Below, piece by piece: positions 1,425 through 20,000 of a stretch of 20,000 nucleotides of DNA. The notes below the pieces were generated by a model. It was not told the origin of the DNA. It made no database searches and was given only the letters and a program-made list of their open reading frames with translations. Position numbers and translations under genes: made by a program. Source of the stretch: an uncultured virus (IMG/VR IMGVR_UViG_3300027969_000053). Its lineage: Duplodnaviria; Heunggongvirae; Uroviricota; Caudoviricetes. The stretch is from IMG/VR virus record IMGVR_UViG_3300027969_000053. One strand, 5' to 3'. Positions within the stretch are counted from its first letter, which is position 1. Each line of letters opens with the position of its first letter.

Positions 1425-1453
1425 ACATAGTACATACACTAATAAGTTAATTT

Positions 1454-3679: not shown

Positions 3680-4350
3680 TGAAAGACATTTCTCTTTATG
3701 GGCATCTGACTATTGATACGATTCTTGACGGTAATTCTGAAAAGAAAAGTTTAGGATCAATGGCAAATGTTTGGAGATCTTTACTTGAGATTGATTCAAC
3801 ATTAAATATTGGACTTTCTCCAATTGATGTTGGTCAAGCACTTGTTTATATTGATAAACTTTCAGCACAAAGGTATTCAAAAGCAAATTTAAATCTAGTT
3901 CAACACAAAGTAAAAATCTTCGAATCAAAAGTTCACCATCTAATTTATCTCAATGAAATGTCTATTCATGATTTTATTCCAAAACTGAATGGTATTATCA
4001 CTGCAGATATATGTTCTGGAAAATCATTGAATAAAGATTTACTTAAGGGTGTAGATTATCTTTTTATTTCTGATGAAGATATTGATGGCAATCTTTCAGA
4101 TTACGTGAATACAATAAAGGGGTATGTGATACTTCATAGTTCATCAGGAAGCATTGTATCAAATGGAAAAGATGAGTTTTTCTATAAACTGCCTAAAGAT
4201 TTAATACTGAAAGGTGTTAATGTTCTTGGTGCTGGTGATACATTTGCGTCTTGTTTCTTATATAAATTACTAAGGAATGAAGGAAGCATCCACAACTGGA
4301 TCGAATTTGCTCATTTAAAGACAACTGAAATTATTAGGAATTCGATATGA
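3679..4350 (+). CDS. PfkB/ribokinase-family carbohydrate kinase (short)
   Basis: N-terminal GHLTIDTI...LGS and C-terminal NVLGAGDTFAS PfkB signature. Confidence 0.75.
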   Translation: MKDISLYGHLTIDTILDGNSEKKSLGSMANVWRSLLEIDSTLNIGLSPIDVGQALVYIDKLSAQRYSKANLNLVQHKVKIFESKVHHLIYLNEMSIHDFIPKLNGIITADICSGKSLNKDLLKGVDYLFISDEDIDGNLSDYVNTIKGYVILHSSSGSIVSNGKDEFFYKLPKDLILKGVNVLGAGDTFASCFLYKLLRNEGSIHNWIEFAHLKTTEIIRNSI

Positions 4351-5504: not shown

Positions 5505-5821
5505 TTCAAGCAAATATTGTTGACTTTAAAGCAGGATGGTTTGTTGGGGACTTTGAACCATCTATTTTTAAGAATCCATTTTTTGAAGTTGCACACCATT
5601 CTCACACAAAAGGTCAACAAACTTTTCCTCATTACCATGCAGTCACTAATGAACTTAACTACATTGTAAAAGGTGAACTAATAGTATCTGGAAAGCATTT
5701 GAATGCAGGTAATATGTGGATCTATGAACCAAAGGAAATTTCTGATGTTGAGTTCTTGAGTGATGTTGATCTTATAGTAGTGAGATGGCCGTCTATTCCT
5801 TCGGATAAGTATATGGTATGA
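5501..5821 (+). CDS. Small cupin-fold protein
   Basis: GWFVGDFEP, HYH...ELNYIVKG cupin-like metal motif; ATGA-coupled to both neighbours. Confidence 0.65.
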   Translation: MIQANIVDFKAGWFVGDFEPSIFKNPFFEVAHHSHTKGQQTFPHYHAVTNELNYIVKGELIVSGKHLNAGNMWIYEPKEISDVEFLSDVDLIVVRWPSIPSDKYMV

Positions 5822-6285
5822 AACTGATAGCACATAGAGGTAATATTGTAGGACCTAATCCTCTAGAGGAGAATAAACTAGAATACATTGAAGCAGCAAT
5901 TGCAGGTGGATATGATGTTGAGATTGATGTAAGATGGGAAGATCATCAGTTTTATTTGGGACATGATGGACCACAATATTATGTCCCTATGACTTGGTTA
6001 GTTAAAAGAAAAGATAAACTTTGGATTCATTGTAAAGATTTTAAATCTTTGAATATTTTTTCTAATAGTCCAATAGATTTTAACTTTTTTTGGCATGAAA
6101 ACGATAAGTATACTTTGACTAGTAAAGGTTATATTTGGACTTATCCTGGGCAATTATTTGAAAATAATTCTGTTATTGTAATGCCAGAAGTATTCGACTT
6201 GCAAAATATTCAAGATAATGGTACAATAGCATACAGCAAAAAATCTTTTGCTGTATGTAGTGACTATGTGGAAAAATTTAAATGA
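5818..6285 (+). CDS. Glycerophosphodiester phosphodiesterase (GDPD)-like short protein
   Basis: LIAHRGN, EN, VEIDV, LGHD, WIHCK, VCSDY motifs. Confidence 0.7.
   Translation: MKLIAHRGNIVGPNPLEENKLEYIEAAIAGGYDVEIDVRWEDHQFYLGHDGPQYYVPMTWLVKRKDKLWIHCKDFKSLNIFSNSPIDFNFFWHENDKYTLTSKGYIWTYPGQLFENNSVIVMPEVFDLQNIQDNGTIAYSKKSFAVCSDYVEKFK
6199..6227 (+). promoter_or_regulatory. Possible internal sigma70-type promoter
   Basis: TTGCAA (6199-6204), 17 nt spacer, extended -10 TGgTACAAT (6219-6227), about 55 nt upstream of the 6282 ORF. Confidence 0.35.
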
Positions 6286-6893
6286 CATCTACGATTTCCC
6301 CAGTATTTAAAGAATTAAAACAATATGATAAAATTAATGTTATAGATGTTGGATCTGCAAGAGCATCTTTTTTGGTAGAATTGGAAAAATCCTTTGATCT
6401 AAAAAATGTTTATTCTATAGGAATTGATCCAATTGATTATGGAGTAGAATCTCATTATGATAAGTTTTATCGTGTTTGTCTGGATGACGTTAAAACTCCT
6501 CAAAAGCAAATATTTTATAACGATGATCAATCCTCTTCGCTGCTTTCTTCCAAAGGTGAAAAAATGGGCTTGGTTGACATTTTAAATATCAATAGCATTA
6601 TCGATGTTGATATACCAGAAAATATTATACATTTTATTAAAATAGATGCAGAAGGAAAGGATTTGTCTATTGTAAAATCTTTATCAAAACAAAATTTAAA
6701 TAGAACAAAATTTATTGCAATAGAATGTCCAAATAAAATTCCAAGATATGATGGCGAATATATTAAAAAAGATTGTATTGAATATTTTAATTCTATAAAT
6801 TTTGAATTTTTTTATGAATACGATACTAATATTGAATCTTGGAACAAATCAGATTTGAGTGATGTCGTTTTTATAAACAAACGAGAATTATGA
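6282..6893 (+). CDS. FkbM-like methyltransferase
   Basis: VIDVGSA, GIDP, SSSLL, FIKIDAEGKDLSIVKS, FIAIE. Confidence 0.7.
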   Translation: MTSTISPVFKELKQYDKINVIDVGSARASFLVELEKSFDLKNVYSIGIDPIDYGVESHYDKFYRVCLDDVKTPQKQIFYNDDQSSSLLSSKGEKMGLVDILNINSIIDVDIPENIIHFIKIDAEGKDLSIVKSLSKQNLNRTKFIAIECPNKIPRYDGEYIKKDCIEYFNSINFEFFYEYDTNIESWNKSDLSDVVFINKREL

Positions 6894-7630
6894 AAGTAGC
6901 ATTATGTTTATCCGGTCAACCAAGAGTAGTTGACATTGGGTTTCAAAAACTAAGCCAATCAATTCTTCAGCACAATGATGTTGATGTGTTTATTCATACT
7001 TGGTTTGATCCTGAAAATCTTAGTACAAATTCTGTCATTCCTGGCAGAGAATCTCATAGGTTAGATCCTCAAGCAATTGATAAATTGATTCATTATTATC
7101 AACCAAAACGCATTATGGTTGAAAAACCAAAAAAGTGGTCAAAAAGATATGAGTTTCCTGATAAGGTTTTTACACATTCGCATACTTGGGCACTTGAAGT
7201 TCCTGTAGGATTGGAAGCGGCAAAAGATTATATTTGTGATACTACAAATAGTATGTTTTATAGTATTATGATGTCAAATCTTTTGAAGGAGCAATATTCA
7301 ACAGAAATCGGAATTGAATATGATTTAGTAATTCGAAATAGAATTGACTATTCTCCTCATGTAGTGCTAAAATTGAATGAGATTCCAATAGATGATTGTA
7401 CACTAATATATCAAGATCTATATCAACCTGATGGTATGATTAGTGATTGGTTTGGTATGGGATCAACAAACACTATGAATGTTTTTTGTGGCGTATATAA
7501 TCAAATAGGTCATCTCATCCGACAATCAAATGAAGTTGATGGATATTGGTGCAATGAACTTCTTCTTAAACATCATATCAAAAATAATAAAATTAAAACA
7601 AATCCTATAGACTATCAAGTTCACTATTAA
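6890..7630 (+). CDS. Hypothetical protein, probable glycan-modifying enzyme or glycosyltransferase
   Basis: [40 protein letters not shown]; a pattern recurrent in viral glycan islands. Confidence 0.55.
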
Positions 7631-7631
7631 C

Positions 7632-8657
7632 ATGAAGAAAGCACTTATTACTGGCATTACTGGTCAAGATGGATCATATCTTGCGGATTTACTTTTGAGC
7701 AAAGGATATGAAGTTCATGGAATTATTCGTAGAAATTCAACATCAGATTGTACTGATAGAATTAATTATCTTTTAGGAAATCCCAAAATCACTTTACATT
7801 ACGGAGATCTAACTGATTTCTCAAATATTACATCTATCATTCAAGAAACTCGTCCTGATGAGATCTATAATCTTGCAGCACAAAGTCATGTAAAAGTATC
7901 TTTTTCCAATGCACTTTATACTGCTGATGTAGATGCTTTAGGTGTTTGTCGTATTCTTGAAGCACTACGAATTCTTGGCATGATTAATACGACCAAGTTT
8001 TATCAGGCAAGCACTTCAGAAATGTATGGTCTTGTTCAAGAAATTCCTCAACGTGAAGGTACAAAATTTCATCCAAGATCTCCTTATGGTGTGGCAAAAC
8101 TTTATGCTTATTGGATTACTAAAAACTATCGTGAAGCATATGGTTTGTTTGGATGTAACGGAATTCTTTTTAATCATGAAAGTCCTCGTCGCGGAGAAAC
8201 TTTTGTGACTCGTAAGATTACTAAAACTCTTGCAGAGATCAAGAATGGTAAACGTAGTCTACCATTAGAACTTGGTAATATAGACGCAAAACGTGATTGG
8301 GGTCATGCAAAAGATTATGTGGAGGCAATGTGGTTAATACTTCAACGTAATAAACCAGATGATTATGTTGTTGCAATGGGTGAACAGCATTCTGTTCGTG
8401 AATTTGTTGAGATTGCCTGTGAACATTTTGGATTTGATATTGAATGGAAAGGAGAGGGAATAGAGGAGGTGGCAGTCTTTAGAAATACAAATAATGTTCT
8501 TATAAAAATTAATTCAGAATTTTATCGTCCTGCTGAAGTTGATTCTCTTGTTGGTGATTCTAGTTATACTAAAAGCAGAATTGGTTGGATTCCCAGATAC
8601 TCTTTTTCTGATCTTGTAACGGAAATGTGCGATAGTGATTTGGAGGCAACAAAGTGA
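7632..8657 (+). CDS. gmd: GDP-mannose 4,6-dehydratase
   Basis: [81 protein letters not shown]. Confidence 0.96.
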
Positions 8658-9583
8658 AGAAAAGGATTGTATTTTGGGTAGAAAATAAACCATATCAAAC
8701 TTTTTCTTACATCTATGCTGGAATGAAAAAAGCATTTGAAAGATTGGGTTGTGAAACATATTGGTTTAGTGATTCTAATTATCCTTCAAAATTGGAGTTT
8801 GATTACTCGGATTGTATTTTTTTTGTAGATAATCAAGGTCCACTTGATTGGAATGTTCCTATTATTGATAGTGGAATTTATTTTTCTTATGATAAATTTA
8901 CAAATCTGGATAAGTATCTTGATAAGGTCAAGTGTCTTGTGAATTATCGAGTTGCTGAATTCAAAAAACCAATTCCGGATAATGATAGGTATATTGAAGT
9001 TGAAAAAGGAGTTACTTTTGATACTCAAGCACCAGAACCTTATAATGTTGTTTATTTTAGTTGGGCAACTAATTTGCTTCCTGATGAAATTGATTTTGAT
9101 TGGGCCAATAAACAGAGAAATGATGAATATAATTTTGTTGGTACTATTCATTCTCCCCGTCCAAATTCCAAACCCCTTCATCAAGATTTTATTGATATTG
9201 TAAAAAATAAAAATATTACATTCAATCATTATAATCCTAATATTAATCCTGCAACTGATCAGGAACATATTGAGATTCTTCAAAAATCGATGTTTGTTCC
9301 AGATTTTAGACCACAAGAACAAAAAGATAATTGGTATGTTTCATGTCGTGTTTTGAAGGCAATTAGTTATGGTTGTCTTACTGTTTCGGATTCTTCTTAT
9401 CTTAAACACTTTATTGATGATAGTCTTTTGGTTTCTGAAAATGCTCAAGAAATATTTGATCTTGGAATGAGAAATCAGTATAATAAAGATTTAATTGTAC
9501 ATCAAATGGAAATTATAAAAAGAGATCATACTTATTTAAATAGGTGCAAAGGTATTCTTCAAATCGTAGAAAATATAAAATGA
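8654..9583 (+). CDS. Putative glycosyltransferase (GT-B, CgeB/Glyco_trans_1_2-like)
   Basis: GTG start in a GTGA overlap; [25 protein letters not shown]-terminal pattern. Confidence 0.55.
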
Positions 9584-10437
9584 AAATTACAATTTTAGGT
9601 TCCAGTGGACAGATCGGTGCCTATCTTACCGAGTATCTGCGTAAAAAAGGACATGTAGTTGAAGAGTTTGATGTAGTTAATGGACCTTCACAGGATATGA
9701 CCGTAATTCCTAATCAATATCTTGAAATAAAAATTAGAGATTCTGATTTTGTATTCTTCCTTGCATTTGATGTGGGTGGATCACGTTATCTTAAAAAGTA
9801 TCAACATACTTTCCAGTTCATTGATAATAATACTCGTTTGATGGCAAATGCTTTTGGATTTCTTCAAAAGTATAATAAGAGGTTCATCTTTGCCTCATCT
9901 CAGATGAGTAACATGAGTTATTCTCCTTATGGAGTTCTCAAGAACGTTGGTGAACTGTATACCAAATCACTTAAAGGACTGATCGTTAAGTTTTGGAATG
10001 TTTATGGTATTGAGAAAGATCAAGAAAAAGCACACGTCATCACAGACTTTATTCGTAAAGGATTTGAGACTGGTTTGATTGATATGCTTACTGATGGCGA
10101 AGAGGAACGTGAGTTTCTTTATGCTGAAGATTGTTGTGAAGCACTTGAAACCATTATGGAGAATTATACTGACTTTACCTCAGAAGATAATCTTCATATT
10201 ACTAGTTACCATCCAACTAAGATTATTGATATTGCAAATATGATTATTGGGCAATTTAATTTGATTGGTAAGTATGATATAAAACTTCAACCATCTACCG
10301 AAAAAGATAGTGTTCAGATGGATAAAAAGAATCGTCCAGATTTATATCTTTCTAAGTGGTGGATTCCCAAAACAACAATAGATCAAGGAATTTCAAAAGT
10401 TTTTAAAAGTATGGAGAAAAATTATGTTAGCGTGTAA
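9580..10437 (+). CDS. NAD-dependent epimerase/dehydratase (extended SDR)
   Basis: Likely start is ATG 9580 (ATGA overlap). GSSGQIG, FLAFDVGGSRY, ASSQM, YGVLK (YxxxK), NVYG, REFLYAED. Confidence 0.85.
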   Translation: MKITILGSSGQIGAYLTEYLRKKGHVVEEFDVVNGPSQDMTVIPNQYLEIKIRDSDFVFFLAFDVGGSRYLKKYQHTFQFIDNNTRLMANAFGFLQKYNKRFIFASSQMSNMSYSPYGVLKNVGELYTKSLKGLIVKFWNVYGIEKDQEKAHVITDFIRKGFETGLIDMLTDGEEEREFLYAEDCCEALETIMENYTDFTSEDNLHITSYHPTKIIDIANMIIGQFNLIGKYDIKLQPSTEKDSVQMDKKNRPDLYLSKWWIPKTTIDQGISKVFKSMEKNYVSV

Positions 10438-11266
10438 TCAACTTGGCAATAATGGAAGACTTGGGAATCAAATGTTCCAATATGCTGCACTAAAAGGTAT
10501 CGCACATCGTAGAGGATTTGATTATTGTATTCCCCCATTTGACCAACAAGGAATTGATAATTATGGACTTGGTGATGCCTTTAATATTAAATCTTTTACT
10601 GGTATAGCAAATCTTCCATCAGTTGGAGAACCTCATTTTCATTACAGTGAAGAATTTCACAATACTTGTCCAGATGATGTTACTCTTGTTGGATATTTCC
10701 AAACTGAAAAATATTTCAAAGATATTGAAGACCAAATCCGCCAAGACTTTATTTTTAGAGATGAATGGATGGAACCCTGTAAGGGGTTTCTTCAAGAGTT
10801 TGAGGGACAAGAGATCGCTTTCCTTCATGTTCGCCGTGGAGATCCAAATCTAGTGGATCGTAGGGGATTTAAATGGGCATACGTGAATTGTTCCGATCAA
10901 CATCCAGTTCAATCTTTGGAATATTATGAGGAGGCAATCAAGAGATTGCCAGAAGATATGCCGATACTTGTTTTTTCTGATTCAATTGAATGGTGTAAAG
11001 AACAAGAATTCTTTCAACCAGATAGATTTTTATTTTCGGAATCAGAAGACAAATATTCAGATGGCGCTTTGGTTCCATATGTTGATTTGTGCTTGATGTC
11101 CTTGTGTGATCATGCTATAATTGCTAATAGTAGTATGAGTTGGTGGGGTGCTTGGTTGATGAAAAATCCAAACAAAAAAGTAATCGCACCAAAAATGTGG
11201 TTTGGAACAGCATATTCTCACCACATCACAAAAGACATTTACTGCGATAATTGGGAGATTATTTGA
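10424..11266 (+). CDS. GT11 family alpha-1,2-fucosyltransferase-like glycosyltransferase
   Basis: GRLGNQMFQYA, GYFQTEKYF, HVRRGD, VFSDSIEWCK, NSSMSWWGAWL. Confidence 0.9.
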   Translation: MLACNQLGNNGRLGNQMFQYAALKGIAHRRGFDYCIPPFDQQGIDNYGLGDAFNIKSFTGIANLPSVGEPHFHYSEEFHNTCPDDVTLVGYFQTEKYFKDIEDQIRQDFIFRDEWMEPCKGFLQEFEGQEIAFLHVRRGDPNLVDRRGFKWAYVNCSDQHPVQSLEYYEEAIKRLPEDMPILVFSDSIEWCKEQEFFQPDRFLFSESEDKYSDGALVPYVDLCLMSLCDHAIIANSSMSWWGAWLMKNPNKKVIAPKMWFGTAYSHHITKDIYCDNWEII

Positions 11267-12093
11267 TGATTTATATTTCTGGGTCTAATGGATTGATCGG
11301 AACAGAACTGACAAAAAATATTCAAAACTATATTCCAATCTCTTATAGGAATCAATATCCAGAAATAAATTTTTTATCGAATTCTACATTGATTCATTTA
11401 TCTTCATCAACCACTCCTAGAAATAGTTTTGGTGAATTGCAATCATCATTTAATAGTGATGTTTTGATTCCTTTTGAATTGTTTCAAAATTATTTAAAAG
11501 TAAATTCAAATGGAAGAATTATTTTTCTTTCTACTGCTGGGGATTTACATAGTTCTGAATTTGATGTTTGGTCTAATGAAGAATCAGAACCTATTCCAAA
11601 GTCAATTTATGGCGCACATAAATTACTTTTAGAACATTGTACAAAGTTACTTCATAGTCAATATGATTTTACGAGTATAGTTTTAAGAACTACAAATGTT
11701 TATGGTGGAAAGATTGACCCAAAAAGAGTGAATGGATTGATTGATAAATTGATTTCAAATAATAATGAAATCGTAATAACATCAAATATTAAAACGACAG
11801 TTAATTTTATTCATATTAGTGATTTGATTAGTTTAATTTTGCAATCATTGGATGCGAATCTTAAAGGATTTAATTTATTTTTGGTTGGCAGTGAAAAATC
11901 CATTTCTATTCAGGATTTGATTGAAAAAATATCATCATATATTTCTCCAAATATTGTATTTAAAAATGAGAATTCAAATCCCTCATACATAAACATAGAC
12001 ACCTCAAAGGTGCAAAAATATCTCAATTGGAAATGCAAATATTCAATTGATAGTGGTATAATTAAACAAGTACAATCTTTGAATTCTTTATGA
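11266..12093 (+). CDS. NAD-dependent epimerase/dehydratase (divergent SDR)
   Basis: Likely start is ATG 11266 (TGATG overlap). GSNGLIG, FLSTAG, YGAHK (YxxxK), NVYG, NFIHISD. Confidence 0.75.
   Translation: MIYISGSNGLIGTELTKNIQNYIPISYRNQYPEINFLSNSTLIHLSSSTTPRNSFGELQSSFNSDVLIPFELFQNYLKVNSNGRIIFLSTAGDLHSSEFDVWSNEESEPIPKSIYGAHKLLLEHCTKLLHSQYDFTSIVLRTTNVYGGKIDPKRVNGLIDKLISNNNEIVITSNIKTTVNFIHISDLISLILQSLDANLKGFNLFLVGSEKSISIQDLIEKISSYISPNIVFKNENSNPSYINIDTSKVQKYLNWKCKYSIDSGIIKQVQSLNSL
12054..12062 (+). promoter_or_regulatory. Possible extended -10 promoter element
   Basis: TGgTATAAT at 12054-12062, about 28 nt upstream of the GT6 start; the -35 region is poor. Confidence 0.3.
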
Positions 12094-12809
12094 AAATTGC
12101 TATTTCATTTTTTGGGACAGGAAGTTATTTGAATTTTCTTCCTAATTGGTATACGTCCATTCATGATAATTTTCTTCCAGGTGTAGAAAAAAAGTTTATT
12201 GTATTTACAGATGGAGAGGGTGATTTTCCAGAAGATGTTACTAAAATAGAAATAGAACATTTTGGGTGGCCTGATGTTTTTTACAAAACATTTGAAACAA
12301 TCTTGAAAGCAAAAGAAATTATTTCTGAATGCGATTGGTTTATTTCTATTGATGCGGATATGATTGTTAATGGCAAAGTATCTATTGAAGAATTTATTGA
12401 TGAAACCAAAGATTATATTGGAGTTCATCATCCTTGTGCTTATTTAAAACTTCCACCACACGACAAATATCCAGGATCTTTTGATGTAAATCCACTATCA
12501 AATGCTTACATCACCGAAGATATGGATACTTCTGTTTATTATCAAGGATGTTTATGGGGTGGAAAGGTTCCTGAAATTATTGAAATGATGGAACTTTTAG
12601 ATGAATGGACAAAGAAAGATATTGAAAAGAATTCTACTCCCGTTTGGTATGAAGAATCTTATTTTAATAAGTTTTTTATTACAAACAAAGAAAGAGTACA
12701 TACACTTCCTCCGTCATTTGCTTATCCAGAAGACTTTAAACAATATTGCGATTTTGAAGAAAAAATCACACATATCTCTAAAAATAATCAACAATATCAT
12801 AATCAATGA
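12090..12809 (+). CDS. GT6 family glycosyltransferase (ABO/alpha-1,3-Gal(NAc) transferase fold)
   Basis: FGTGSY, VFTD, GWP, DAD, HP, YYQGCLWGG, WYEESYFNKFF (cf. GT6 WHDESHLN). Confidence 0.82.
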   Translation: MKIAISFFGTGSYLNFLPNWYTSIHDNFLPGVEKKFIVFTDGEGDFPEDVTKIEIEHFGWPDVFYKTFETILKAKEIISECDWFISIDADMIVNGKVSIEEFIDETKDYIGVHHPCAYLKLPPHDKYPGSFDVNPLSNAYITEDMDTSVYYQGCLWGGKVPEIIEMMELLDEWTKKDIEKNSTPVWYEESYFNKFFITNKERVHTLPPSFAYPEDFKQYCDFEEKITHISKNNQQYHNQ

Positions 12810-13588
12810 CTATGACTAAAAATTTATCAGTTTATTATCATATCTGGAGTCCTGGCGGAACGGATCTTTGGAAATTGATGGTAGACGAACAACTTAAAAG
12901 AATTTATCGCAATGGACTTACGGAAAGTGCTTCTATCTATTGCGCTATTAATGGACCACAAGCAAACCGAATTGCAGAATATATCTCCATCTATGATTGG
13001 TTAAATGTTCTTGATGTTTCAATTGATGAAAGTGAGTATGAAGGATTCACTTTAAAGAGAGCATACGAAGAGGCACATTTCAATCCAGATTTGAAAGCAG
13101 TTGCTTATCTTCATACAAAAGGCATTAGTCATATGTGTGGAGTTCGGGATCATTACTCTGATCGTAAGTTTAGAGCAGTGAATAGTTGGAGACATCAAAT
13201 GGAATGGGGCATTCTTGATCGGTGGAAAGAAGCGGTAGAAAAACTTGACGAATATCAAGTTTCTGGTGTAAATTATTGTTTGGATCCTTGGCCTCATATG
13301 AGTGGAAACTTTTGGTGGGCACGGGCGGATTATCTTAAAACTTTAATTCATCCCACTAGAGATAGATTTCCAAATGACAATAGAGATTTTGGACCAATTC
13401 AAAGAATGAATTTTGAAAAATGGATTGGACTGAATAATCCAAAATCTTTCAGTTTTTACGATGCTCCATTTAGTTATGATTTTAAAGGAATGACACCAGA
13501 TGTACAACCAACACCCCCAGGAGAACCGCATTGGTTCTGGTTGTACCGAGACGACATTGAACCCTATTATAGAAAGGAAGGTAACTGA
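12806..13588 (+). CDS. Hypothetical protein, probable glycosyltransferase-like
   Basis: YEGFTL, YLHTKG, SWR, HMSGNFWWARADY, EKWIG; motifs typical of viral glycan-island proteins. Confidence 0.55.
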   Translation: MTMTKNLSVYYHIWSPGGTDLWKLMVDEQLKRIYRNGLTESASIYCAINGPQANRIAEYISIYDWLNVLDVSIDESEYEGFTLKRAYEEAHFNPDLKAVAYLHTKGISHMCGVRDHYSDRKFRAVNSWRHQMEWGILDRWKEAVEKLDEYQVSGVNYCLDPWPHMSGNFWWARADYLKTLIHPTRDRFPNDNRDFGPIQRMNFEKWIGLNNPKSFSFYDAPFSYDFKGMTPDVQPTPPGEPHWFWLYRDDIEPYYRKEGN

Positions 13589-13589
13589 T

Positions 13590-14312
13590 ATGACTTTTGG
13601 ATGCTTTCATACAGTGTATGAAAATAAAAGAGCAACAGAGTTTATTTTGCAAGAGTTTAGAAAATATTATCCAGATGCTCCTTATACTTTGATTTGTGAT
13701 GGTGGAGTAGATTACTCTGATCTTGCTGTAAAGTACAATTGTAAATATATTCATTCGTATATGCATATTGGCAGAAGAAATTCTGGGGATCCTTCTGGAA
13801 TTTATGGATTCACAAAGGATGAAAGTCTTCATTGGATTCATATGTTTAGGGAGGCAGCAAGACACGTTAAAGAAAATGGTGGAACACATATGATTATGAT
13901 GGAAGATGATGTTCTCACTCAAGGTGAAGTGAAAATTAATCCAATTTGGGAATGTGCTGGATTTGATGTTCCGGGAAATAAAATTTCTCCTGGTCTTTTG
14001 AAGTTTATTGAAGAAAAGTATAATGCAAAACCAAATGTTGATTGGTATGGTGCTGGTGGCGGAACCATTTATAATATTGAAACATTTTTAGATAACTATC
14101 ATAAAATCTATGATTTTATTGATTTTGATTTTGAAAATATTCTAGAAAATATGGATTATAGATTTGGTTGGTTGGATCTTTATATGCAAATTGCTTATTT
14201 TGTAATTGGTAAACATTATTCAATTAATACAAATTTAACTGAAGTTTGGAAAACACCAAACTTTAGGGATAGTGAATTTACTCTTGTTCATGCTTATAAG
14301 GAATTATACTGA
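13590..14312 (+). CDS. Putative GT-A fold glycosyltransferase
   Basis: Likely start is ATG 13590, 1 nt after the previous stop. LICDGG, MMEDDV, GAGGG, C-terminal LVHAYK. Confidence 0.55.
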   Translation: MTFGCFHTVYENKRATEFILQEFRKYYPDAPYTLICDGGVDYSDLAVKYNCKYIHSYMHIGRRNSGDPSGIYGFTKDESLHWIHMFREAARHVKENGGTHMIMMEDDVLTQGEVKINPIWECAGFDVPGNKISPGLLKFIEEKYNAKPNVDWYGAGGGTIYNIETFLDNYHKIYDFIDFDFENILENMDYRFGWLDLYMQIAYFVIGKHYSINTNLTEVWKTPNFRDSEFTLVHAYKELY

Positions 14313-15289
14313 TGAAAATTGCATTTATTGGACCTGGAATTATGCCCATTCCTCCTGATGGGTGGGGGGCAGTTGAATCTTTAATCTGGGAAATTGCTTG
14401 TGAACTTGGGGAAATGGGTCATAGTGGAACAATTATTAATGATCCAAATTTGAATGAAATTATTAAAACAGTCCAACAAGATGAGTACGATTTCATTCAT
14501 TTATTTTATGATGTTTTTCACCCAATTATGGATGAGATTAAAAGGTTGTGTCCCAAATCTATAACTGCGATTAGTAGTGCTTATCCTTATGTGGATCAAT
14601 TTCAATTTCATCAAAGAGATGGATATGATAAAACATATAAGTGGTTGATTGAACAAAAAAATCATTATAATTTTTGTTTGTCTGATAAAGATTTTGAAAC
14701 ATTTAAAAAGGGTGGAGCAGACGAATCAAAACTTTTGAGACTTGGACTTGGTGCTCAACATAAGAATTTTAAATTTAATATTGAATGCGAAAAACCAAAT
14801 AAAACCCTATATATGGCAAAAATTGAAGTTAGAAAACGTCAATGGGTCTATCAGTCAATTGATAGCATTGAGTTTGTTGGTAGATATTCTCCCACAACTA
14901 CATTTGATAAACTTCATAAAAGTTATATTGGAGAGTGGACAACAGAACAAAAACACGAAAATGTAACCAAGTATGCAAATTTACTTCTTCTTTCTGATGG
15001 TGAAAATGGGACTCCGCTCGTAATTAAAGAGGCACTTGTTTCTGGTATTGGTGTGGTTTGTTCTAAGTATGCTGCTTATGATTTGGATCATAGTCTTCCA
15101 TTTATTACAGTTGTTCCTGATGATAAATTAAATGACTTGAATTATGTGAGTAATGCAATTAAAGAAAATCGTGAAGTATCTGTGAACATGCGACAGCAAA
15201 TTCATGAATATGGTGTAAATAATTTTTCTTGGGAGAATATTGTAAAACCTTATATTCAAACTATTGAAAAATTGGAGAGTGTTCAGTGA
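14312..15289 (+). CDS. GT4-like glycosyltransferase (paralog 1)
   Basis: IGPGIMPIPPDGWGAVE, AKIEVRKRQ, LLSDGENGTPLVIKEALVSG (Ex7-8E), FSWE. Confidence 0.85.
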   Translation: MKIAFIGPGIMPIPPDGWGAVESLIWEIACELGEMGHSGTIINDPNLNEIIKTVQQDEYDFIHLFYDVFHPIMDEIKRLCPKSITAISSAYPYVDQFQFHQRDGYDKTYKWLIEQKNHYNFCLSDKDFETFKKGGADESKLLRLGLGAQHKNFKFNIECEKPNKTLYMAKIEVRKRQWVYQSIDSIEFVGRYSPTTTFDKLHKSYIGEWTTEQKHENVTKYANLLLLSDGENGTPLVIKEALVSGIGVVCSKYAAYDLDHSLPFITVVPDDKLNDLNYVSNAIKENREVSVNMRQQIHEYGVNNFSWENIVKPYIQTIEKLESVQ

Positions 15290-16239
15290 AAATCTGCATC
15301 ATTGGTCCTGGATTTTCTCAAATTCCACCAGTTGGTTGGGGTGCTGTTGAAATTGTAATTTGGGATACAGCAAATACGTTGAAAGAATTAGGACATCAAG
15401 TAGATATTATTAATACTACTGATCCCCAACAAATTCTTTCAACAATTAATCAAATTAATCCGGATTTTGTTCACGTTCATTATGATGATTATGTCTTCTT
15501 GTATCCATATATTCAATTTCCAAAAGCAATTACAACGCATTATGGATATCTAGAAAGACCAGAAATGTATGGTGCTTACTCATATAAAGCAAATGGATTT
15601 GCAAATATCAAACCAAATGTTTTTGCTTTGTCTGATGGTATTAAAAGTATCTATCAAAATCAAATGAGAATTCCGGAACAAAACTTATATACTGTTCCAA
15701 ATGGTGTGATTAATGAGAATTTTAAATTTACTAATACACCAGAATTTCCAAATAGATCAATCTACCTAGCAAAAGTAGATTACAGAAAGAGGCAGTGTTT
15801 ATTTCAATCAATATCTTCAATTTATTATGCTGGAAATATTGTAGATGAAAGATTTGATAGAAATAAAAATTATCTTGGGGAATGGTCAAAAGAAGATTTG
15901 TATAATAATTTAACTGATTATGCGAATCTTATTTTACTCTCTGATGGTGAAGCACATCCACTTGTTTGTATGGAAGCACTCTCTGCTGGATTGGGTCTTG
16001 TGATTTCTGAATGGGCAACTGCTAATTTGGATTTAAATAAAGATTTCATTACTGTTATTCCTGAAAGTAAAATTATAGACTTGGAATATGTGTCTTTAAA
16101 AATTGAAGAAAATAGAACAATATCTTTACAAAAAAGAAATGAAATAGTAGAGTATTCAAAAGAATTTGCTTGGAAAAAACAAATTGAAAACTATTATATT
16201 CCTGCTGTAAAACAAGTTATGCAAAAATCTAATGGATAA
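15286..16239 (+). CDS. GT4-like glycosyltransferase (paralog 2)
   Basis: GTG start; IGPGFSQIPPVGWGAVE, VPNG, AKVDYRKRQ, LLSDGEAHPLVCMEALSAG, FAW. Confidence 0.85.
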   Translation: MKICIIGPGFSQIPPVGWGAVEIVIWDTANTLKELGHQVDIINTTDPQQILSTINQINPDFVHVHYDDYVFLYPYIQFPKAITTHYGYLERPEMYGAYSYKANGFANIKPNVFALSDGIKSIYQNQMRIPEQNLYTVPNGVINENFKFTNTPEFPNRSIYLAKVDYRKRQCLFQSISSIYYAGNIVDERFDRNKNYLGEWSKEDLYNNLTDYANLILLSDGEAHPLVCMEALSAGLGLVISEWATANLDLNKDFITVIPESKIIDLEYVSLKIEENRTISLQKRNEIVEYSKEFAWKKQIENYYIPAVKQVMQKSNG

Positions 16240-17029
16240 AAACAAATCTACCTACAAACTTCAAGGAATTGGTCCAATTTATTACATTAATCTTGATGGA
16301 CAACCAGAAAGAAAACAATATGTAGAAGATCAATTTGAGTATTGGGAAATTGAAAATTACACTCGTATTTCTGCTTATGATGGTCGTAATGATGATTTAA
16401 GTGATATTATATCTGGTCGTTATCCAGATAATATGACTTCTGGTGAGATTGGGTGTGTCACCTCCCACCTTAAAGCAATCAAGCATTGGTACGAAACAAC
16501 AGATAGTCCATATGCAATTATTATGGAAGATGATGTTGATCTGCAACTTGTAAAGAATTGGGATTTTTCTTGGAAAGATTTTTACTCATTGATTCCCTAT
16601 GATTGGGATGTAGTTCAACTTGCTATTATTTGTACTGGACCTTTACATATCAAACTTCATAAAAGATTTGTAAATAACTTTTCTACTGCCGCTTATATGA
16701 TTAATCGGCATCACGCAGAAAAACTTTTAAAGTTTCATATTCGGGGTGATAAGTATAAACTTGATAATGGATGCAAACCAAGAGCGGTTGCAGATGATCT
16801 AGTTTATAATTCTGGAAATACTTATAGTATTCCTTTACTTCTTTATAAAATTCAATTGGGTTCTTCTATTCACCCAGAGCACGTTGATATTTTTCACAAA
16901 TCAAGTCACGATGGTCTCTTAGAATTTTGGCAACAGAAAGGGGCAGGATTGAATATTCGGGAACTGATGGATTATGATCCTTATCTTGGTAGAATTACTG
17001 AAAATGTTCCAGAACAAAGTAACACTTGA
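16232..17029 (+). CDS. GT25 family glycosyltransferase
   Basis: YYINLD..ERK, RISAYDG, GEIGCVTSH, IMEDDV, WDVVQL, STAAYMI. Confidence 0.85.
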   Translation: MDKNKSTYKLQGIGPIYYINLDGQPERKQYVEDQFEYWEIENYTRISAYDGRNDDLSDIISGRYPDNMTSGEIGCVTSHLKAIKHWYETTDSPYAIIMEDDVDLQLVKNWDFSWKDFYSLIPYDWDVVQLAIICTGPLHIKLHKRFVNNFSTAAYMINRHHAEKLLKFHIRGDKYKLDNGCKPRAVADDLVYNSGNTYSIPLLLYKIQLGSSIHPEHVDIFHKSSHDGLLEFWQQKGAGLNIRELMDYDPYLGRITENVPEQSNT

Positions 17030-17054
17030 CAAGTCTTAACATTTCCTATATAAT
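17026..17054 (+). promoter_or_regulatory. Consensus sigma70 (early-type) promoter of the hli cluster
   Basis: TTGACA (17026-17031), 17 nt spacer, TATAAT (17049-17054); the -35 box overlaps the GT25 stop codon. Confidence 0.85.
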
Positions 17055-17081
17055 TGTGTAGTAAAACTTCATAAAACAAAA

Positions 17082-17291
17082 ATGACTGTAACAACCAATG
17101 AGCGCGGGCAAAATAATATGTGGGCACTTGAGCCAAAAGTTTATATTTCTGATGAAGATGCAATCAAATATGGAATTAAAACTTATGCCGAACGTGCAGA
17201 GCTTGCTAATGGAAAATTTGCGATGCTTGGATTTGTTGCCGCAATTATATCTTATGCGACAACAGGACACCTCTTTTTTGGTGTAATCTAA
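17082..17291 (+). CDS. hli: High-light inducible protein (Hlip), long form
   Basis: MTVTTNERGQNNMWALEP N-terminus and AERAELANGKFAMLGFVAA...TG helix motif. Confidence 0.92.
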   Translation: MTVTTNERGQNNMWALEPKVYISDEDAIKYGIKTYAERAELANGKFAMLGFVAAIISYATTGHLFFGVI

Positions 17292-17377
17292 TGGGAGAAG
17301 CAATCTTTACCATCGCAAGCATTGCCTTCTTTGTGCTTCTTTCACATTCTATCAATCAACTTTCAGAAACTTACTAA
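17291..17377 (+). CDS. 28-aa hydrophobic microprotein MGEAIFTIASIAFFVLLSHSINQLSETY (not in the ORF track)
   Basis: The ATG overlaps the hli stop (TAATG); the ORF fills the gap between the two hli genes and has one predicted TM helix. Confidence 0.65.
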   Translation: MGEAIFTIASIAFFVLLSHSINQLSETY

Positions 17378-17390
17378 CGGAGAAACAAAA

Positions 17391-17510
17391 ATGAAATTCG
17401 GATTTACCCCTGAGGCAGAACTTCTTAATTCTCGCCTCGCAATGCTTGGATTTGTAATCGCAGTTGGCACTTATCTCGCCACTGGGCAAATTCTGCCTGG
17501 AGTATGGTGA
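17391..17510 (+). CDS. hli: High-light inducible protein (Hlip), short form, 39 aa
   Basis: ATG 17391 preceded by GGAGA; MKFGFTPEAELLNSRLAMLGFVIAVGTYLATGQILPGVW. Confidence 0.93.
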   Translation: MKFGFTPEAELLNSRLAMLGFVIAVGTYLATGQILPGVW

Positions 17511-17549
17511 GACCCTAACACAAGTAAGCAATTATACTTATTCTTTGCT

Positions 17550-17582
17550 ATCCTCACTCTAAATAAGGGTGAGGATTTTTTT
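17550..17582 (+). terminator. Rho-independent terminator after hli, with TAAATA at the loop
   Basis: Stem ATCCTCACTCT / AGGGTGAGGAT, loop AAATA, followed by a T-run. Confidence 0.8.
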
Positions 17583-17591
17583 GTTTGGACG

Positions 17592-17666
17592 ATGTATAAT
17601 ATATTGGAGATTTATTTTTTAGTCATTTTTGTCGTTCTGGTGCTGAAGGCAGCGACTTTCAAATGA
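17592..17666 (+). CDS. Possible 24-aa hydrophobic microprotein MYNILEIYFLVIFVVLVLKAATFK
   Basis: ATG...TGA frame about 27 nt downstream of a TAAATA motif, with GGA just upstream and a hydrophobic core. Very short. Confidence 0.35.
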   Translation: MYNILEIYFLVIFVVLVLKAATFK

Positions 17667-17670
17667 CCCC

Positions 17671-17704
17671 TTGACAGGACCCAGGGACCGTGCTATGATA
17701 AATA
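17671..17704 (+). promoter_or_regulatory. psbA promoter: sigma70 promoter overlapped by a T4-like late-promoter motif
   Basis: TTGACA (17671-17676), 17 nt spacer, TGcTATGAT (17691-17699); ATAAATA at 17698-17704. Confidence 0.8.
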
Positions 17705-17740
17705 AGTCAGGAAACGAAGACAAATCTTTACGTTTCTTAA

Positions 17741-17850
17741 CCTTCTGTAACCGAGATCATCAGAAGTAAAGCGTCTCTCATATCCGTACTGGAGGGTGGT
17801 ACGGAAATAACTGTAACATTCAGTTCCCCCTGAATTCTTATTTACCCTTT
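17741..17850 (+). ncRNA. Structured psbA 5' leader, probably the PhotoRC-II RNA motif
   Basis: Stems CTTCTG/CAGAAG, TCCGTAC/GTACGGA and ATTCAG/CTGAAT; loop-to-downstream complementarities GAGA/TCTC and AGGGT/ACCCT; located directly upstream of a cyanophage psbA. Confidence 0.65.
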
Positions 17851-17858
17851 AACGAAAA

Positions 17859-18938
17859 ATGACTGCTACAATTGCTACACGTTCTGATAATAATGTCTGG
17901 GAACAGTTTTGTTCTTGGATTACTTCTACCGACAACCGTCTTTATGTTGGTTGGTTCGGTGTTCTACTTATTCCAACAGTTTTAACTGCAACCATCTGCT
18001 TTATTCTTGCTTTTATTGCGGCACCTCCAACAGATCTGGACGGAATTAGGGAAGCAGTATCTGGTTCTCTAATGTATGGCAATAACATTATTAGTGCTTC
18101 AGTAATTCCTAGTTCTAATGCCATAGGATTGCATCTATACCCAATTTGGGAAGCACAATCTCTGGAAGAATGGCTATACAATGGAGGCGAATATCAACTT
18201 ATTGTTTTCCATTTTATGATTGCAATTTATGCTTATATGGGTCGTGAATGGGAACTTTCATATAGGTTGTCAATGCGCCCTTGGATTTGTGTTGCTTATA
18301 GTGCTCCTGTTGCTGCTGCTACTGCTATCTTTCTTGCTTATCCAATTTCACAAGGTTCATTTTCTGATGGATTTCCTTTGGGAATTTCGGGCCAATTTAA
18401 TTTTATGTTAGTCTTTCAGGCAGAGCATAATATTCTTATGAATCCGTTTCATATGTTAGGTGTTGCTGGTGTTTTTGGTGGCGCTTTAGTTTCTGCCACT
18501 CACGGATCACTCGTAACAAGTTCTCTTGTGAGAGAAACTACTGAGGAGGAAAGTCAAAATAAAGGATATAAATTTGGTCAAGAACAAGAAACTTATAATT
18601 TAGTTGCCGCACACGGGTATCTGGGTCGTCTTCTGTTTCAATATGCATCCTTTAATAATAGTCGTTCATTGCACTTTGTGATGGCTGCACTACCTGTTAT
18701 TGGTATTTGGTTTGCTGCTTGTGGAATTTTTATGTCTGGTTTTAATCTCAACGGTCTAAATTATGTTCATAGTATCCAAGATAACCAAATGAGAACAATT
18801 CCTACTTGGGCGGACGTATTGAACCGGGCAAATTTGGGAATTGAAACAATTCACGAAAGAAATAGCCATCAGTTTCCATTAGATTTGGCATTTTCTGCTG
18901 GTTCGGAAATTGCACTTATTGCACCTTCAGTTGGTTGA
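17859..18938 (+). CDS. psbA: Photosystem II reaction centre protein D1, intronless and highly divergent
   Basis: 359 aa, colinear with standard D1 numbering. D61, H118, E130, Y161, D170, E189, H190, H198, H215, H252, S264, H272, H332, E333, H337, D342 and A344 are all present. Confidence 0.98.
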
Positions 18939-18963
18939 TAAAAAACTGAATATATGATAAATG

Positions 18964-18991
18964 AAGAGACCCATCAAAGGGTCTCTTTTTT
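18964..18991 (+). terminator. Rho-independent terminator of psbA
   Basis: AAGAGACCC-ATCAAA-GGGTCTCTT followed by TTTT. Confidence 0.85.
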
Positions 18992-18993
18992 GT

Positions 18994-19000
18994 CTAAATA
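18994..19000 (+). promoter_or_regulatory. Putative T4-like late promoter for the endonuclease gene
   Basis: CTAAATA immediately after the psbA terminator and 26 nt before the ATG at 19027. Confidence 0.5.
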
Positions 19001-19026
19001 TTTAAAATTAATCAACTTAAAAATAA

Positions 19027-19479
19027 ATGAAAGAATTAGAAAGGAAATGTAGAGACTGTGGTTTAATTAAATCAATTGCTGAATATTATAGAACAACTTA
19101 TAAGAAAAAGGAATGTTATCATACTAATTGCAAATCTTGTTATATTAAAAGAAATCAGGAAAGATATGACCCAATAAAACAAAGAGATAATAATTTAAAA
19201 CGTTTATATGGAAAGCAATTTGGAATTGATGAATATAATAAACTTCTAGAGAAGCAAGATTTTAAATGTGCTATATGCAAAACTACTGAAATTAAGGGTA
19301 GAAAAACTGGTAGAGGGGGGCAGATAGAAGTTTTTTATGTAGACCACGATCATAAGACGGGAAAAGTTCGTGGATTGCTTTGTAATATATGCAATAGAAC
19401 TATGGGTTATGTTGGTGAAAATTCTGGAGTGTTGGAAGAAATGATTAAATACCTACAAAAACACCAACCCACACCTTGA
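19027..19479 (+). CDS. Endonuclease VII-family free-standing (homing) endonuclease, F-CphI-like
   Basis: N-terminal CxxC...CxxC; Q..KCAIC, VDHDHKTGKVRGLLCNICNRTMG EndoVII signature; directly downstream of psbA. Confidence 0.85.
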   Translation: MKELERKCRDCGLIKSIAEYYRTTYKKKECYHTNCKSCYIKRNQERYDPIKQRDNNLKRLYGKQFGIDEYNKLLEKQDFKCAICKTTEIKGRKTGRGGQIEVFYVDHDHKTGKVRGLLCNICNRTMGYVGENSGVLEEMIKYLQKHQPTP

Positions 19480-19505
19480 CACCACCCCCCAAAAACTGCT
19501 ATAAT
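19476..19505 (+). promoter_or_regulatory. sigma70 (early-type) promoter
   Basis: TTGACA (19476-19481), 18 nt spacer, TGcTATAAT (-10 at 19500-19505); overlaps the endonuclease stop codon. Confidence 0.75.
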
Positions 19506-19528
19506 ACTCACAACGTCGCAAACACATT

Positions 19529-19753
19529 ATGAAACAACTCACATCCGAACAAATCAAAACTCTGGAAGATGCCTTTGCAAGTTATCCGGAGGACTATAAC
19601 TCAGATACTAAGTATGCAAATATGAATAGTATTCAAGAACAACTAGATGGACTTAAAGGAGAACCTGGAGATATTTTTTATATCTCTAAAGTAACTATGG
19701 TTGATAAAATAAATCTACCCAAATTTACAATAGAAAGAATGAAAGTACTTTAA
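19529..19753 (+). CDS. Hypothetical protein, 74 aa
   Basis: ORF bracketed by its own promoter and terminator; no recognisable motif. Confidence 0.65.
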   Translation: MKQLTSEQIKTLEDAFASYPEDYNSDTKYANMNSIQEQLDGLKGEPGDIFYISKVTMVDKINLPKFTIERMKVL

Positions 19754-19762
19754 AATAAATAG

Positions 19763-19789
19763 AGGAGTTCCACAAGAACTCCTTTTTTT
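19763..19789 (+). terminator. Rho-independent terminator, preceded by ATAAATA (19755-19761)
   Basis: AGGAGTTC-CACAA-GAACTCCT followed by a T-run. Confidence 0.8.
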
Positions 19790-19855
19790 ATGCTCCTCAT
19801 CCTCCTGTTCTTCCAGTTATTCGGAGTGTTCCTCTTTCTAATGTCTCTACTATAA
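19790..19855 (+). CDS. Possible 21-aa hydrophobic microprotein MLLILLFFQLFGVFLFLMSLL
   Basis: ATG...TAA frame, almost entirely hydrophobic, downstream of a late-promoter-like ATAAATA. Confidence 0.4.
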   Translation: MLLILLFFQLFGVFLFLMSLL

Positions 19856-19877
19856 ATCCCCCAAGAAGTATTACAAA

Positions 19878-20000
19878 TTGTCTTATCTAAATCATAACTT
19901 ACCTGATTGGAGTTGTTACATTCGTAATGAGTTTCTATATAATCACAAAAAAGGACAAGGTGAAGTTACAAAATGTGATGTTCACTCTGTCGCAAGTATG
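19878..20000 (+). CDS. Hypothetical phage protein, 3'-truncated (TTG start; (M)SYLNHNLPDWSCYIRNEFLYNHKKGQGEVTKCDVHSVASM...)
   Basis: Open frame to the window end with protein-like composition; resembles the N-terminus of a conserved cyanomyovirus hypothetical (recalled, not searched). Confidence 0.6.
   Translation, partial: MSYLNHNLPDWSCYIRNEFLYNHKKGQGEVTKCDVHSVASM

Follow-up and report, generated by a model that had tools for sequence, protein, structure and literature searches.

Gene content of the psbA region

The window, by which we refer to the whole 20,000-nucleotide stretch of DNA from an uncultured virus of the Caudoviricetes, carries towards its 3' end a psbA gene followed by a variable cassette. 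The following features were mapped in this region:

17322..17510, +: hli gene 5' of psbA, encoding a high-light-inducible protein (Pfam Chloroa_b-bind, E 1.8e-4)
17671..17699, +: promoter-like site upstream of psbA (TTGACA-17-TATGAT, 11/12 consensus positions; consensus match only)
17728..17818, +: PhotoRC-II RNA motif within the leader of psbA (Rfam RF01717, 60.4 bits at a gathering score of 39, E 3.8e-9)
17859..18938, +: psbA (D1), intron-free, 359-aa open frame with Photo_RC
18755..18938, +: presumed mosaic 3' segment of psbA, codons 299-359 (differences between the window and the relative L010; endonuclease-linked identity blocks in clade relatives)
18830..18889, +: equivalent of the 60-bp F-CphI substrate (PMC6083498, supplement 6); 33 of 60 bases as in the S-BM4 substrate
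18963..18988, +: terminator-like hairpin 3' of psbA (10-pair stem, then a T run)
19027..19479, +: putative free-standing homing endonuclease gene with Endo VII motif (DHHRN, F-CphI type; PF02945, E 5.4e-21; phrog_2633, E 1e-31)
19476..19505, +: sigma-70-like promoter that overlaps the stop codon of the endonuclease gene and precedes the 74-aa ORF (TTGACA-18-TATAAT with TG extension, 12/12; consensus match only)
19529..19753, +: 74-aa ORF inside the variable cassette, 82% identical to the ORF at the same position in L087
19761..19785, +: terminator-like hairpin
19790..19855, +: conserved hydrophobic mini-ORF of 21 codons, bounding the variable slot on the right, with matches in 24 other loci
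19858..20000, +: resumed homology with L010 (95%; blastn to L010 1817-1959), 5' end of the next gene

The psbA gene is a single uninterrupted frame of 359 codons and its product matches the Pfam family Photo_RC with E 2e-88. Identity to D1 of named cellular organisms is 74-76%, and 80-94% was reached only with unnamed metagenomic proteins; the predicted protein is a member of a divergent D1 lineage known so far almost only from viral contigs. When aligned with D1 of Thermosynechococcus, Nostoc, Nodularia and Arthrospira, twelve positions are invariant (Y161, D170, E189, H190, H198, H215, H272, H332, E333, H337, D342, A344), which we take to be the ligands of the D1 cofactors and the Mn cluster. 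Together with the Photo_RC fold these presumed ligand residues identify the predicted product as D1. No group I intron was found by Rfam at E ≤ 1 in positions 17000-20000 of the window; the same library detected psbA group I introns in the relatives L027, L138, L140, L021 and L011. All relatives are metagenome-assembled contigs. In many cyanophage records hli adjoins psbA. The nearest record to the window, G001, is identical to positions 1-17477 only and ends before psbA.

Behind psbA, hairpin and T run can be aligned with their counterparts in the clade relatives and in phage S-PM2. No consensus promoter was found between this terminator and the endonuclease ORF. When the psbA-endonuclease spacers were aligned the terminator was shared, a TATAAT box of the clade was absent from the window, and no clue to the target emerged. 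The 74-aa ORF had no match in Pfam or PHROG and no informative match in the protein atlas. The mini-ORF often stands straight after the endonuclease stop codon, and its reading frame looks preserved in the copies examined; its 24 loci include L136, a duplicate of the window. In L010, the gene following the slot (1837-2457) matches phrog_3704 (E 1e-48).

Relationship of the endonuclease to F-CphI

The ORF at 19027-19479 encodes 150 aa and starts 88 bp after the psbA stop codon. In the phage collection it is most similar to F-CphI of Synechococcus phage S-PM2 and to the homologue of S-SRM01 (41.9% identity over residues 3-147, E 3e-22, tblastn), the F-CphI alignment spanning 97% of the endonuclease length. 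The initial annotation had described an intron-free psbA beside an F-CphI-like endonuclease, which agrees with the open frame, the Rfam search and this similarity. The background it gives is likewise correct: in S-PM2 the F-CphI gene directly follows psbA, whose intron sits exactly between the codons of R334 and N335, equivalent to 18860|18861 in the window.

Both enzymes share a two-part build, a Cys-rich N-terminal part and a C-terminal Endo VII motif, and both genes directly follow psbA and its terminator hairpin. Pfam Endonuclease_7 covers residues 63-145 of the window enzyme. The complete catalytic motif (CX2-4C, DHDH, a conserved R, CX2C and N) is present, and C81, C84, D106, H107, H109, R115, C119, C122 and N123 are invariant in a 13-row and a 28-row alignment. 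The F-CphI residues matching the CxxC/CxxC zinc ligands and the D, H, H, R and N columns have been shown to be essential (Fang et al. 2018, PMC6083498); all of them are conserved in the window enzyme. The same study distinguishes an endonuclease clade from a resolvase clade and reports a C-terminal motif for most sequences of the former; the motif position together with the whole-length alignment to F-CphI places the window ORF with the endonucleases. T4 endonuclease VII (gp49) in contrast carries its motif N-terminally (PMC6083498), and neither an N-terminal motif nor whole-length similarity to this resolvase type was found in the window enzyme.

An AlphaFold2 model of the enzyme (pLDDT 87.7) was compared to known structures with Foldseek. 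The best match is Hpy99I (PDB 3fc3; 149-156 aligned columns, E 2.6e-5), and T4 endonuclease VII (1en7, 2qnf) follows with about 95 columns and E 3e-3, at TM-scores that are low (0.35-0.38). Both proteins have a beta-beta-alpha-metal nuclease core. As opposed to restriction by Hpy99I, no methylase partner was found among the ORFs neighboring the window gene. Compared to its clade relatives the window enzyme is 41-53% identical in the N-terminal 62 residues and 63-82% in the C-terminal part. Homologues from T7-like enterobacterial phages are 38-42% identical to it, about the same as F-CphI, and the choice of target is not readable from sequence similarity alone.

A quick maximum likelihood tree of 67 distinct endonuclease ORFs, with SH-aLRT values as the only support, separates F-CphI and the window enzyme into two clades. 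In the F-CphI clade (SH-aLRT 99) the psbA site is split in 26 rows, intact in none and of unknown status in 2, whereas in the clade of the window (SH-aLRT 98) it is intact in 17, split in 2 and unknown in 1, and the canonical D1 motif HERNAHN is encoded in 18 of the 19 rows of known status. The contig L119, in which psbA and endonuclease are full of frameshifts, was left out of all counts; the C-terminal half of its endonuclease is 90% identical to that of the window. The window enzyme also has a 5-residue insertion before DHDH that is absent from F-CphI and the other non-clade rows of the alignment. The tree and the intron counts suggest a clade that is sister to F-CphI and whose members are normally located behind a psbA without an intron at the F-CphI site. 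In two members, however, the site or its vicinity does carry an intron (L140 after HER, L138 after HERNA), therefore enzyme types and intron states are not strictly coupled.

F-CphI is the textbook example of collaborative homing, where an intron lacking an ORF and a free-standing endonuclease have one shared target. The window psbA, unlike that of the F-CphI system, has no group I intron in the recognition site, therefore the arrangement which defines this system is absent here. Taking all observations together, the ORF at 19027-19479 probably encodes a homing endonuclease that is free-standing and belongs to the F-CphI family (DHHRN, Endo VII motif), which explains the data best.

Recombination in the 3' part of psbA

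Between the window and L010 the psbA sequences show no difference in 17934-18754 (821 bp) and 34 differences in 18755-18938 (184 bp). The probability that all 34 fall into the last 184 of the 1005 bp by chance is 8.5e-26. Ten of these differences are located within 18834-18866, where they alter six codons synonymously and one with an I/L exchange. After psbA the two contigs are wholly different up to 19858, and the slot of L010 contains a 236-aa ORF matching phrog_655 'homing endonuclease' in place of the window cassette.

A corresponding pattern was found in three pairs within the clade of the window enzyme, in which the endonuclease and the last part of psbA are near-identical over 185 bp (L092/L147 and L092/L141) or 233 bp (L093/L143) of psbA. 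Upstream of this block psbA differs every few bases, and the block ends near the endonuclease stop codon. An all-against-all megablast yielded no partners that are close to the clade members with canonical psbA and lack the endonuclease. The sharp junctions could be assembly chimeras; that of the window is covered by the second contig L136, which is 100% identical and has the endonuclease ORF at full length as well, whereas L010 is represented by one contig only. The junction recurring at codon ~299 may mark just the end of a conserved block in which crossovers are resolved rather than the vicinity of a cut. Overall, an endonuclease cassette that appears optional or replaceable and the apparent recombination junctions inside psbA fit a mobile homing-type element.

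The T4 Seg enzymes are GIY-YIG nucleases and differ in catalytic family from the window enzyme with its Endo VII motif. The concept of intronless homing by free-standing phage endonucleases is cited in the Background section of PMC6083498 and in part of PMC3037559. The window resembles the T4 SegF/SegG type of such homing in two respects: an optional nuclease gene is located between conserved genes, and neighboring markers are apparently inherited along with it by co-conversion, the identity blocks including the end of the flanking gene. The likeness is one of gene arrangement and sequence tracts.

We regard intronless homing in which the psbA 3' end is co-converted as the best reading, with a probability of about 0.6. 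During co-infection, the enzyme would introduce a double-strand break into a related phage genome without the endonuclease. Synteny and recombination tracts suggest that this break would lie in the last ~185 bp of psbA or, at odds of about 60:40 in favor of the former, in the spacer behind psbA. The break would then be repaired with the endonuclease-bearing genome as template, and cassette and psbA 3' end would be copied together. The resident genome might owe its protection to sequence specific to its allele within the variable codons 300-315, or to the synonymous differences around 18834-18866.

A less probable, though by no means negligible, explanation is a homing endonuclease whose target is the insertion point or spacer that follows psbA, or a rival nuclease cassette in this slot. 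The resident would in this case be immune because the insertion replaced the target site. Such a target would agree with the at least four alternative nuclease families that occupy the slot from the psbA terminator to the mini-ORF, and with the 236-aa family, for which the near-identity block of L010 and L006 starts approximately at the psbA stop codon and not inside psbA. The identity block of the window clade, however, extends 185-233 bp into psbA and ends near the endonuclease stop codon, an asymmetry consistent with a break left of the endonuclease gene, inside psbA.

The HERNSHQ variant and the psbA 3' end

In the initial annotation the enzyme was proposed to cut canonical HERNAHN-encoding psbA in the manner of F-CphI, the resident gene being protected by recoding of the target. 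At 18843-18878 the window psbA indeed encodes the HERNSHQ version and no HERNAHN (the DNA string quoted there is placed at 18843-18872, the FP codons coming next), and HERNAHN was found in 85 of 85 psbA copies from 80 cyanobacterial genome loci. A cellular origin of the variant was considered. The lone candidate, the NCBI protein P0109, is named Synechococcus sp. UW140, comes from a 12.2-kb contig that may be cellular or phage DNA, and has EVIHEKNSHQFP; against it stand the 85 canonical copies. Ten psbA copy listings from three picocyanobacterial genomes (including two assemblies of UW140) gave HERNAHN nine times and HERNVHN once.

The cut site of F-CphI was reportedly mapped by Zeng et al. 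in 2009. For our site comparisons we used the 60-mer of PMC6083498 (supplement 6), a substrate from S-BM4 which encodes GLGMEVMHERNAHNFPLDL. Several observations would suit protection by recoding: 27 of the 60 bases at 18830-18889 differ from this substrate, among them 11 of the 24 that surround the intron site, the ten differences to L010 are centered on the intron-site equivalent, and in relatives the site is part of the sequence that moves together with the endonuclease. However, in 60-bp windows sliding along the psbA genes of the window and S-BM4 (n = 1014) on average 39.2 bases are identical (sd 4.8), and 13% of them score as low as the site or lower. The F-CphI site of the window psbA is thus no more diverged than the rest of the gene, and the recoding claimed for it holds at the level of the motif but not as an unusual divergence of the target. 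We also searched the site for bases specific to the window's endonuclease clade and found none. Each base of the window site is also present in some relative without a window-type enzyme. Within the clade the psbA sites match the substrate at 39-50 of 60 bases and are variable among themselves.

More importantly, the variant is not tied to the enzyme. HE[RK]NSHQ is encoded by 14 distinct viral psbA alleles, 13 of which have downstream sequence. The slot behind these 13 contains a window-type enzyme in one case, the 236-aa family in three, GIY-YIG+NUMOD3 in three and phrog_681-type ORFs in six, so that the variant is common to 12 distinct alleles with other nuclease families. In the clade of the enzyme itself the neighboring psbA mostly keeps the canonical, uninterrupted site. 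HERNSHQ in D1 is, from the predicted proteins, a trait of the whole divergent viral psbA lineage, in which the 3' flank of psbA is a hotspot for at least four unrelated putative nuclease families. We therefore do not regard it as an immunity device that evolved for the window enzyme, and cleavage at the canonical site with protection by recoding is quite unlikely. What stands of the earlier interpretation is a full-length F-CphI-type ORF in the position of F-CphI, the missing intron and probable mobility, and intronless homing is backed by the cassette polymorphism and the junctions in psbA; self-immunity through the coding change is not supported.

Least likely, and in our view very improbable, is an ORF that no longer homes, as an inactive remnant or after recruitment to another task (resolvase, host DNA degradation, or psbA regulation via antisense or readthrough transcription), for although the lack of a consensus promoter upstream, T4 endonuclease VII among the structural matches and the diverged N-terminal residues would be compatible with it, all catalytic and zinc-binding residues are intact, the motif is C-terminal, and the ORF is of full length and identical in the second contig.

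Beyond intronless homing in the window we tentatively propose a wider scenario, which is possible rather than probable. Two sister clades of psbA-linked Endo VII-type homing endonucleases would exist, the intron-dependent F-CphI and an undescribed intronless one that drags along the last ~185 bp of psbA. The member in the window, with its diverged N-terminal and presumably DNA-recognizing part, would have moved into a virus-only, highly divergent D1 lineage. The psbA 3' end of this lineage would be contested by at least four nuclease families as well as introns, which were found at four insertion points within eight codons, and self would be distinguished from non-self by codons 300-315 or by synonymous patches at the F-CphI site. 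Repeated nuclease-driven conversion would in this scenario render the C-terminal part of phage D1 mosaic.

In the part of PMC3984707 dealing with it, collaborative homing is seen as a stage on the way to mobile introns. A sister clade at the same genomic position, mostly free of introns, would provide natural pairs for comparing self-protection and the origin of the partnership with introns, and the intron-bearing members L138 and L140 would be of particular use for such comparisons. The data also indicate that the 3' end of psbA, a core photosynthesis gene carried by phages, is a nuclease-linked recombination hotspot, which matters for the use of psbA as a phylogenetic or ecological marker of cyanophages.

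The psbA locus and its endonuclease gene

The window appears to derive from a large cyanophage genome; G001, its closest virus record, matches positions 1–17477 with full identity and stops there. Genes for sugar-nucleotide synthesis and glycosyl transfer, all on one strand and frequently overlapping, fill about 17 kb (1–17029), a glycan-modification cluster that is large by phage standards; among them are genes for GDP-mannose 4,6-dehydratase, several epimerases, glycosyltransferase families 4, 6, 11 and 25, methyltransferases and a nucleotidyltransferase-RpiB fusion. The following features lie to the right of this cluster.

Features of the psbA region
17322–17510, hli
17671–17699, promoter-like site upstream of psbA
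17728–17818, PhotoRC-II leader motif (60 bits)
17859–18938, psbA, a single 359-codon frame (Photo_RC, E 2e-88)
18963–18988, terminator-like hairpin after psbA
19027–19479, Endo VII-type endonuclease ORF, 150 aa (Pfam Endonuclease_7 motif in the C-terminal part, residues 63–145, E 5.4e-21)
19476–19505, sigma-70-like promoter, 12/12 consensus match plus TG extension, overlapping the endonuclease stop codon and facing the 74-aa ORF
19529–19753, 74-aa ORF, followed by a second hairpin
19790–19855, hydrophobic mini-ORF of 21 codons, MLLILLFFQLFGVFLFLMSLL, followed by the start of the next gene

An intronless psbA adjoining an F-CphI-like nuclease had been described in the initial annotation, and this is borne out: the frame is uninterrupted, Rfam detected no group I intron in 17000–20000 with a library that readily detects them in relatives, and a search of 50,697 phage records gave F-CphI of Synechococcus phage S-PM2 and its S-SRM01 homologue as the top matches of the 150-aa ORF (41.9% identity, residues 3–147). 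The catalytic residues are intact. No consensus promoter was found between the psbA terminator and the endonuclease ORF. The AlphaFold2 model, of high confidence (pLDDT 87.7), best matches the structure of Hpy99I, with T4 Endo VII next; Hpy99I is also placed in the endonuclease clade by PMC6083498.

The background given in the annotation holds as well. S-PM2 carries an intron-bearing psbA followed by F-CphI, and the intron falls precisely at the R334/N335 codon boundary, equivalent to 18860|18861. Zeng et al. are said to have mapped the F-CphI cut in 2009. Shielding of the resident gene by the intron is published (PMC6083498; PMC5931967), and the published 60-bp F-CphI substrate encodes GLGMEVMHERNAHNFPLDL (PMC6083498, supplement file 6).

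The interpretation put forward there is supported only in part, and the further proposal of a specially recoded target did not hold. The DNA string on which it was based is located at 18843–18872, inside psbA. Between 18830–18889, the counterpart of the substrate in the window, and the S-BM4 sequence 33/60 bases are identical, which is ordinary for this gene: the psbA pair shares 65% DNA identity, with a mean of 39.2 ± 4.8 identical bases per 60 bp, and 13% of 60-bp segments score equally low or lower. Every base at the site recurs in one or another variant-bearing relative. The HERNSHQ coding variant, replacing canonical HERNAHN, characterises a lineage: E[TV][IV]HE[RK]NSHQFP is present in 18 loci representing 14 distinct sequences (window=L136, L006, L007, L008, L009, L010, L027=L030, L057, L058, L075=L076, L077, L078, L079, L083=L084). 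An Endo VII-type ORF follows only one of the 13 variant alleles with downstream sequence, that of the window itself.

The D1 protein of the window is 74–76% identical to named cellular D1. It belongs to a divergent lineage (L006–L010, L027, L057/58, L075–79, L083) whose members come, in this material, almost exclusively from viral or metagenomic contigs. The window D1 departs from otherwise invariant residues close to the Mn cluster (A336S, N338Q) and in other parts of the protein, e.g. P66A, P111E, T179Q, H195N and W278L. Twelve positions which we take to be cofactor or Mn-cluster ligands are all retained. HEKNSHQ is also the reading of P0109, an NCBI protein named Synechococcus sp. UW140, which could be of cell or phage origin.

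Endonuclease clades and intron status

Endonuclease scans yielded 49 viral and 52 metagenome loci, from which ORFs of 120–200 aa were retained; this filter removed fragments and a few long read-throughs, and the frameshifted L119 is absent because its matches are too short. Identical endonucleases were merged into 67 rows, and the upstream HERNAHNFPLD-coding stretch was scored as uninterrupted, split or not visible (L138 and L103 were scored split by eye from translations). In a quick ML tree, with SH-aLRT as the sole support measure, two sister clades were found. In the F-CphI clade (support 99; including S-PM2 and S-SRM01) the site is split in 26 rows, intact in none and not visible in 2, whose contigs end within 52 bp. 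In the window clade (support 98) it is intact in 17 rows, split in 2 and not visible in 1. The split rows are L140 (intron after HER) and L138 (intron after HERNA), both confirmed by Rfam. Two small clades are mixed: L098 and L152 are intact; L127 and L177 are split but L182 is intact.

All 18 other status-known rows of the window clade adjoin canonical HERNAHN[FY]P, with 39–50/60 bases identical to the F-CphI substrate at sites other than the window's. The lack of an intron is therefore the norm in this clade, independent of HERNSHQ. The window endonuclease forms a long, early branch inside its clade; its C-terminal part is 63–82% identical to the other members, its N-terminal 62 residues 41–53%.

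Within a span of eight codons, psbA has four insertion sites for group I introns: before H332 (L011), after R334 (S-PM2 type), after A336 (L138, L103) and after H337/N338 (L020, taken from translation alone). The intron loci are L011 4986–5212, L135 2129–2338, L138 2625–2857, L103 and L020. In L011 a 5' part like the window lineage (91% aa identity) is joined to a canonical HERNAHN exon 2. On the metagenome contig L154 (210–1018) two Endo VII-type ORFs, 45% and 33% identical to the window enzyme, apparently follow psbA exon 2 in tandem.

The nuclease slot and recombination tracts

The psbA 3' flank (window 18939–19789; L006–L084) is a hotspot of free-standing nuclease genes from at least four unrelated families. 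Besides the Endo VII type these are GIY-YIG+NUMOD3 ORFs (L007, L027, L083), a 236-aa phrog_655 type (L006, L008, L010) and phrog_681 'endonuclease'-type ORFs (L057, L058, L075, L077, L078, L079). The L010 copy of the 236-aa ORF matches phrog_655 'homing endonuclease' (E 1e-8), and those of L006 and L008 are 94–97% identical to it. For the phrog_681 type L075 and L078 were scanned directly and the others assigned by blastp, L057 and L058 via L014. Weak HNH-like ORFs (L013, L017) and a NUMOD3-only ORF (L022) also occur in the slot. Its right edge is the mini-ORF, often few bases past the endonuclease stop codon and absent from L010. Thirteen other loci, with psbA only ~70% identical, contain a match to the mini-ORF at 88–98% identity, and 11 further loci match a shorter stretch only.

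Compared with its closest psbA relative, L010, the window shows no difference over 821 bases (17934–18754), whereas 34 of the last 184 psbA bases differ (chance of such placement 8.5e-26). One cluster comprises 20 mostly non-synonymous differences in 18755–18798; a second, with 10 differences in 18834–18866, is centred on the equivalent of the intron site and comprises six synonymous codon changes plus one I/L change. Beyond the psbA stop the two are unrelated up to 19858, the window containing the endonuclease, 74-aa ORF and mini-ORF and L010 the 236-aa ORF.

Three pairs of relatives within the window clade display a complementary pattern. In L092/L147 and L092/L141 psbA differs every few bases until 186 bp before the stop; from there L092/L141 is identical until just beyond the endonuclease stop codon and L092/L147 has two differences, within the endonuclease gene. 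In L093/L143 the same change sets in 234 bp ahead of the stop. Inheritance as a single block therefore covers the endonuclease together with the final 185–233 bp of psbA. On the left, this block begins at the window/L010 junction, codon ~299; this junction may be the mere end of a conserved FNLNG block. Chimeric assembly is conceivable for junctions in single contigs; the part of the window between psbA codon 259 and the end of the 74-aa ORF recurs with 100% identity in a second contig, L136.

The inherited block reaches deep into psbA on the left and ends at the endonuclease stop codon on the right, an asymmetry that would be expected of a break left of the endonuclease gene, within psbA. For the 236-aa family the L010/L006 identity block begins only about the psbA stop, thus tract geometry seems to vary by slot occupant. 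The 74-aa ORF region (19526–19841) shares 89% DNA identity with L087 (2044–2359) and the adjacent endonuclease genes only 69%, suggesting another recombination junction between these genes.

A possible route of spread

We infer that the enzyme would cut related genomes lacking the endonuclease, more probably in the psbA 3' end than in the spacer. Repair would then copy the cassette together with the psbA 3' end, and the resident allele would differ wherever the enzyme reads DNA. The closest known system is collaborative homing by F-CphI and the S-PM2 intron, to whose endonuclease half the window element may correspond, but the defining trait of that system, an intron at the target, is absent. 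In the portions of the literature accessible to us, the only published statements place cyanophage F-CphI-like enzymes next to intron-containing psbA (PMC3428280), and we found no account of an intron-free clade or a multi-family nuclease slot; Millard et al. 2010 and Zeng et al. 2009 may bear on both. The window element offers a way into the contrast between the two clades and into the hotspot of nuclease genes behind psbA.
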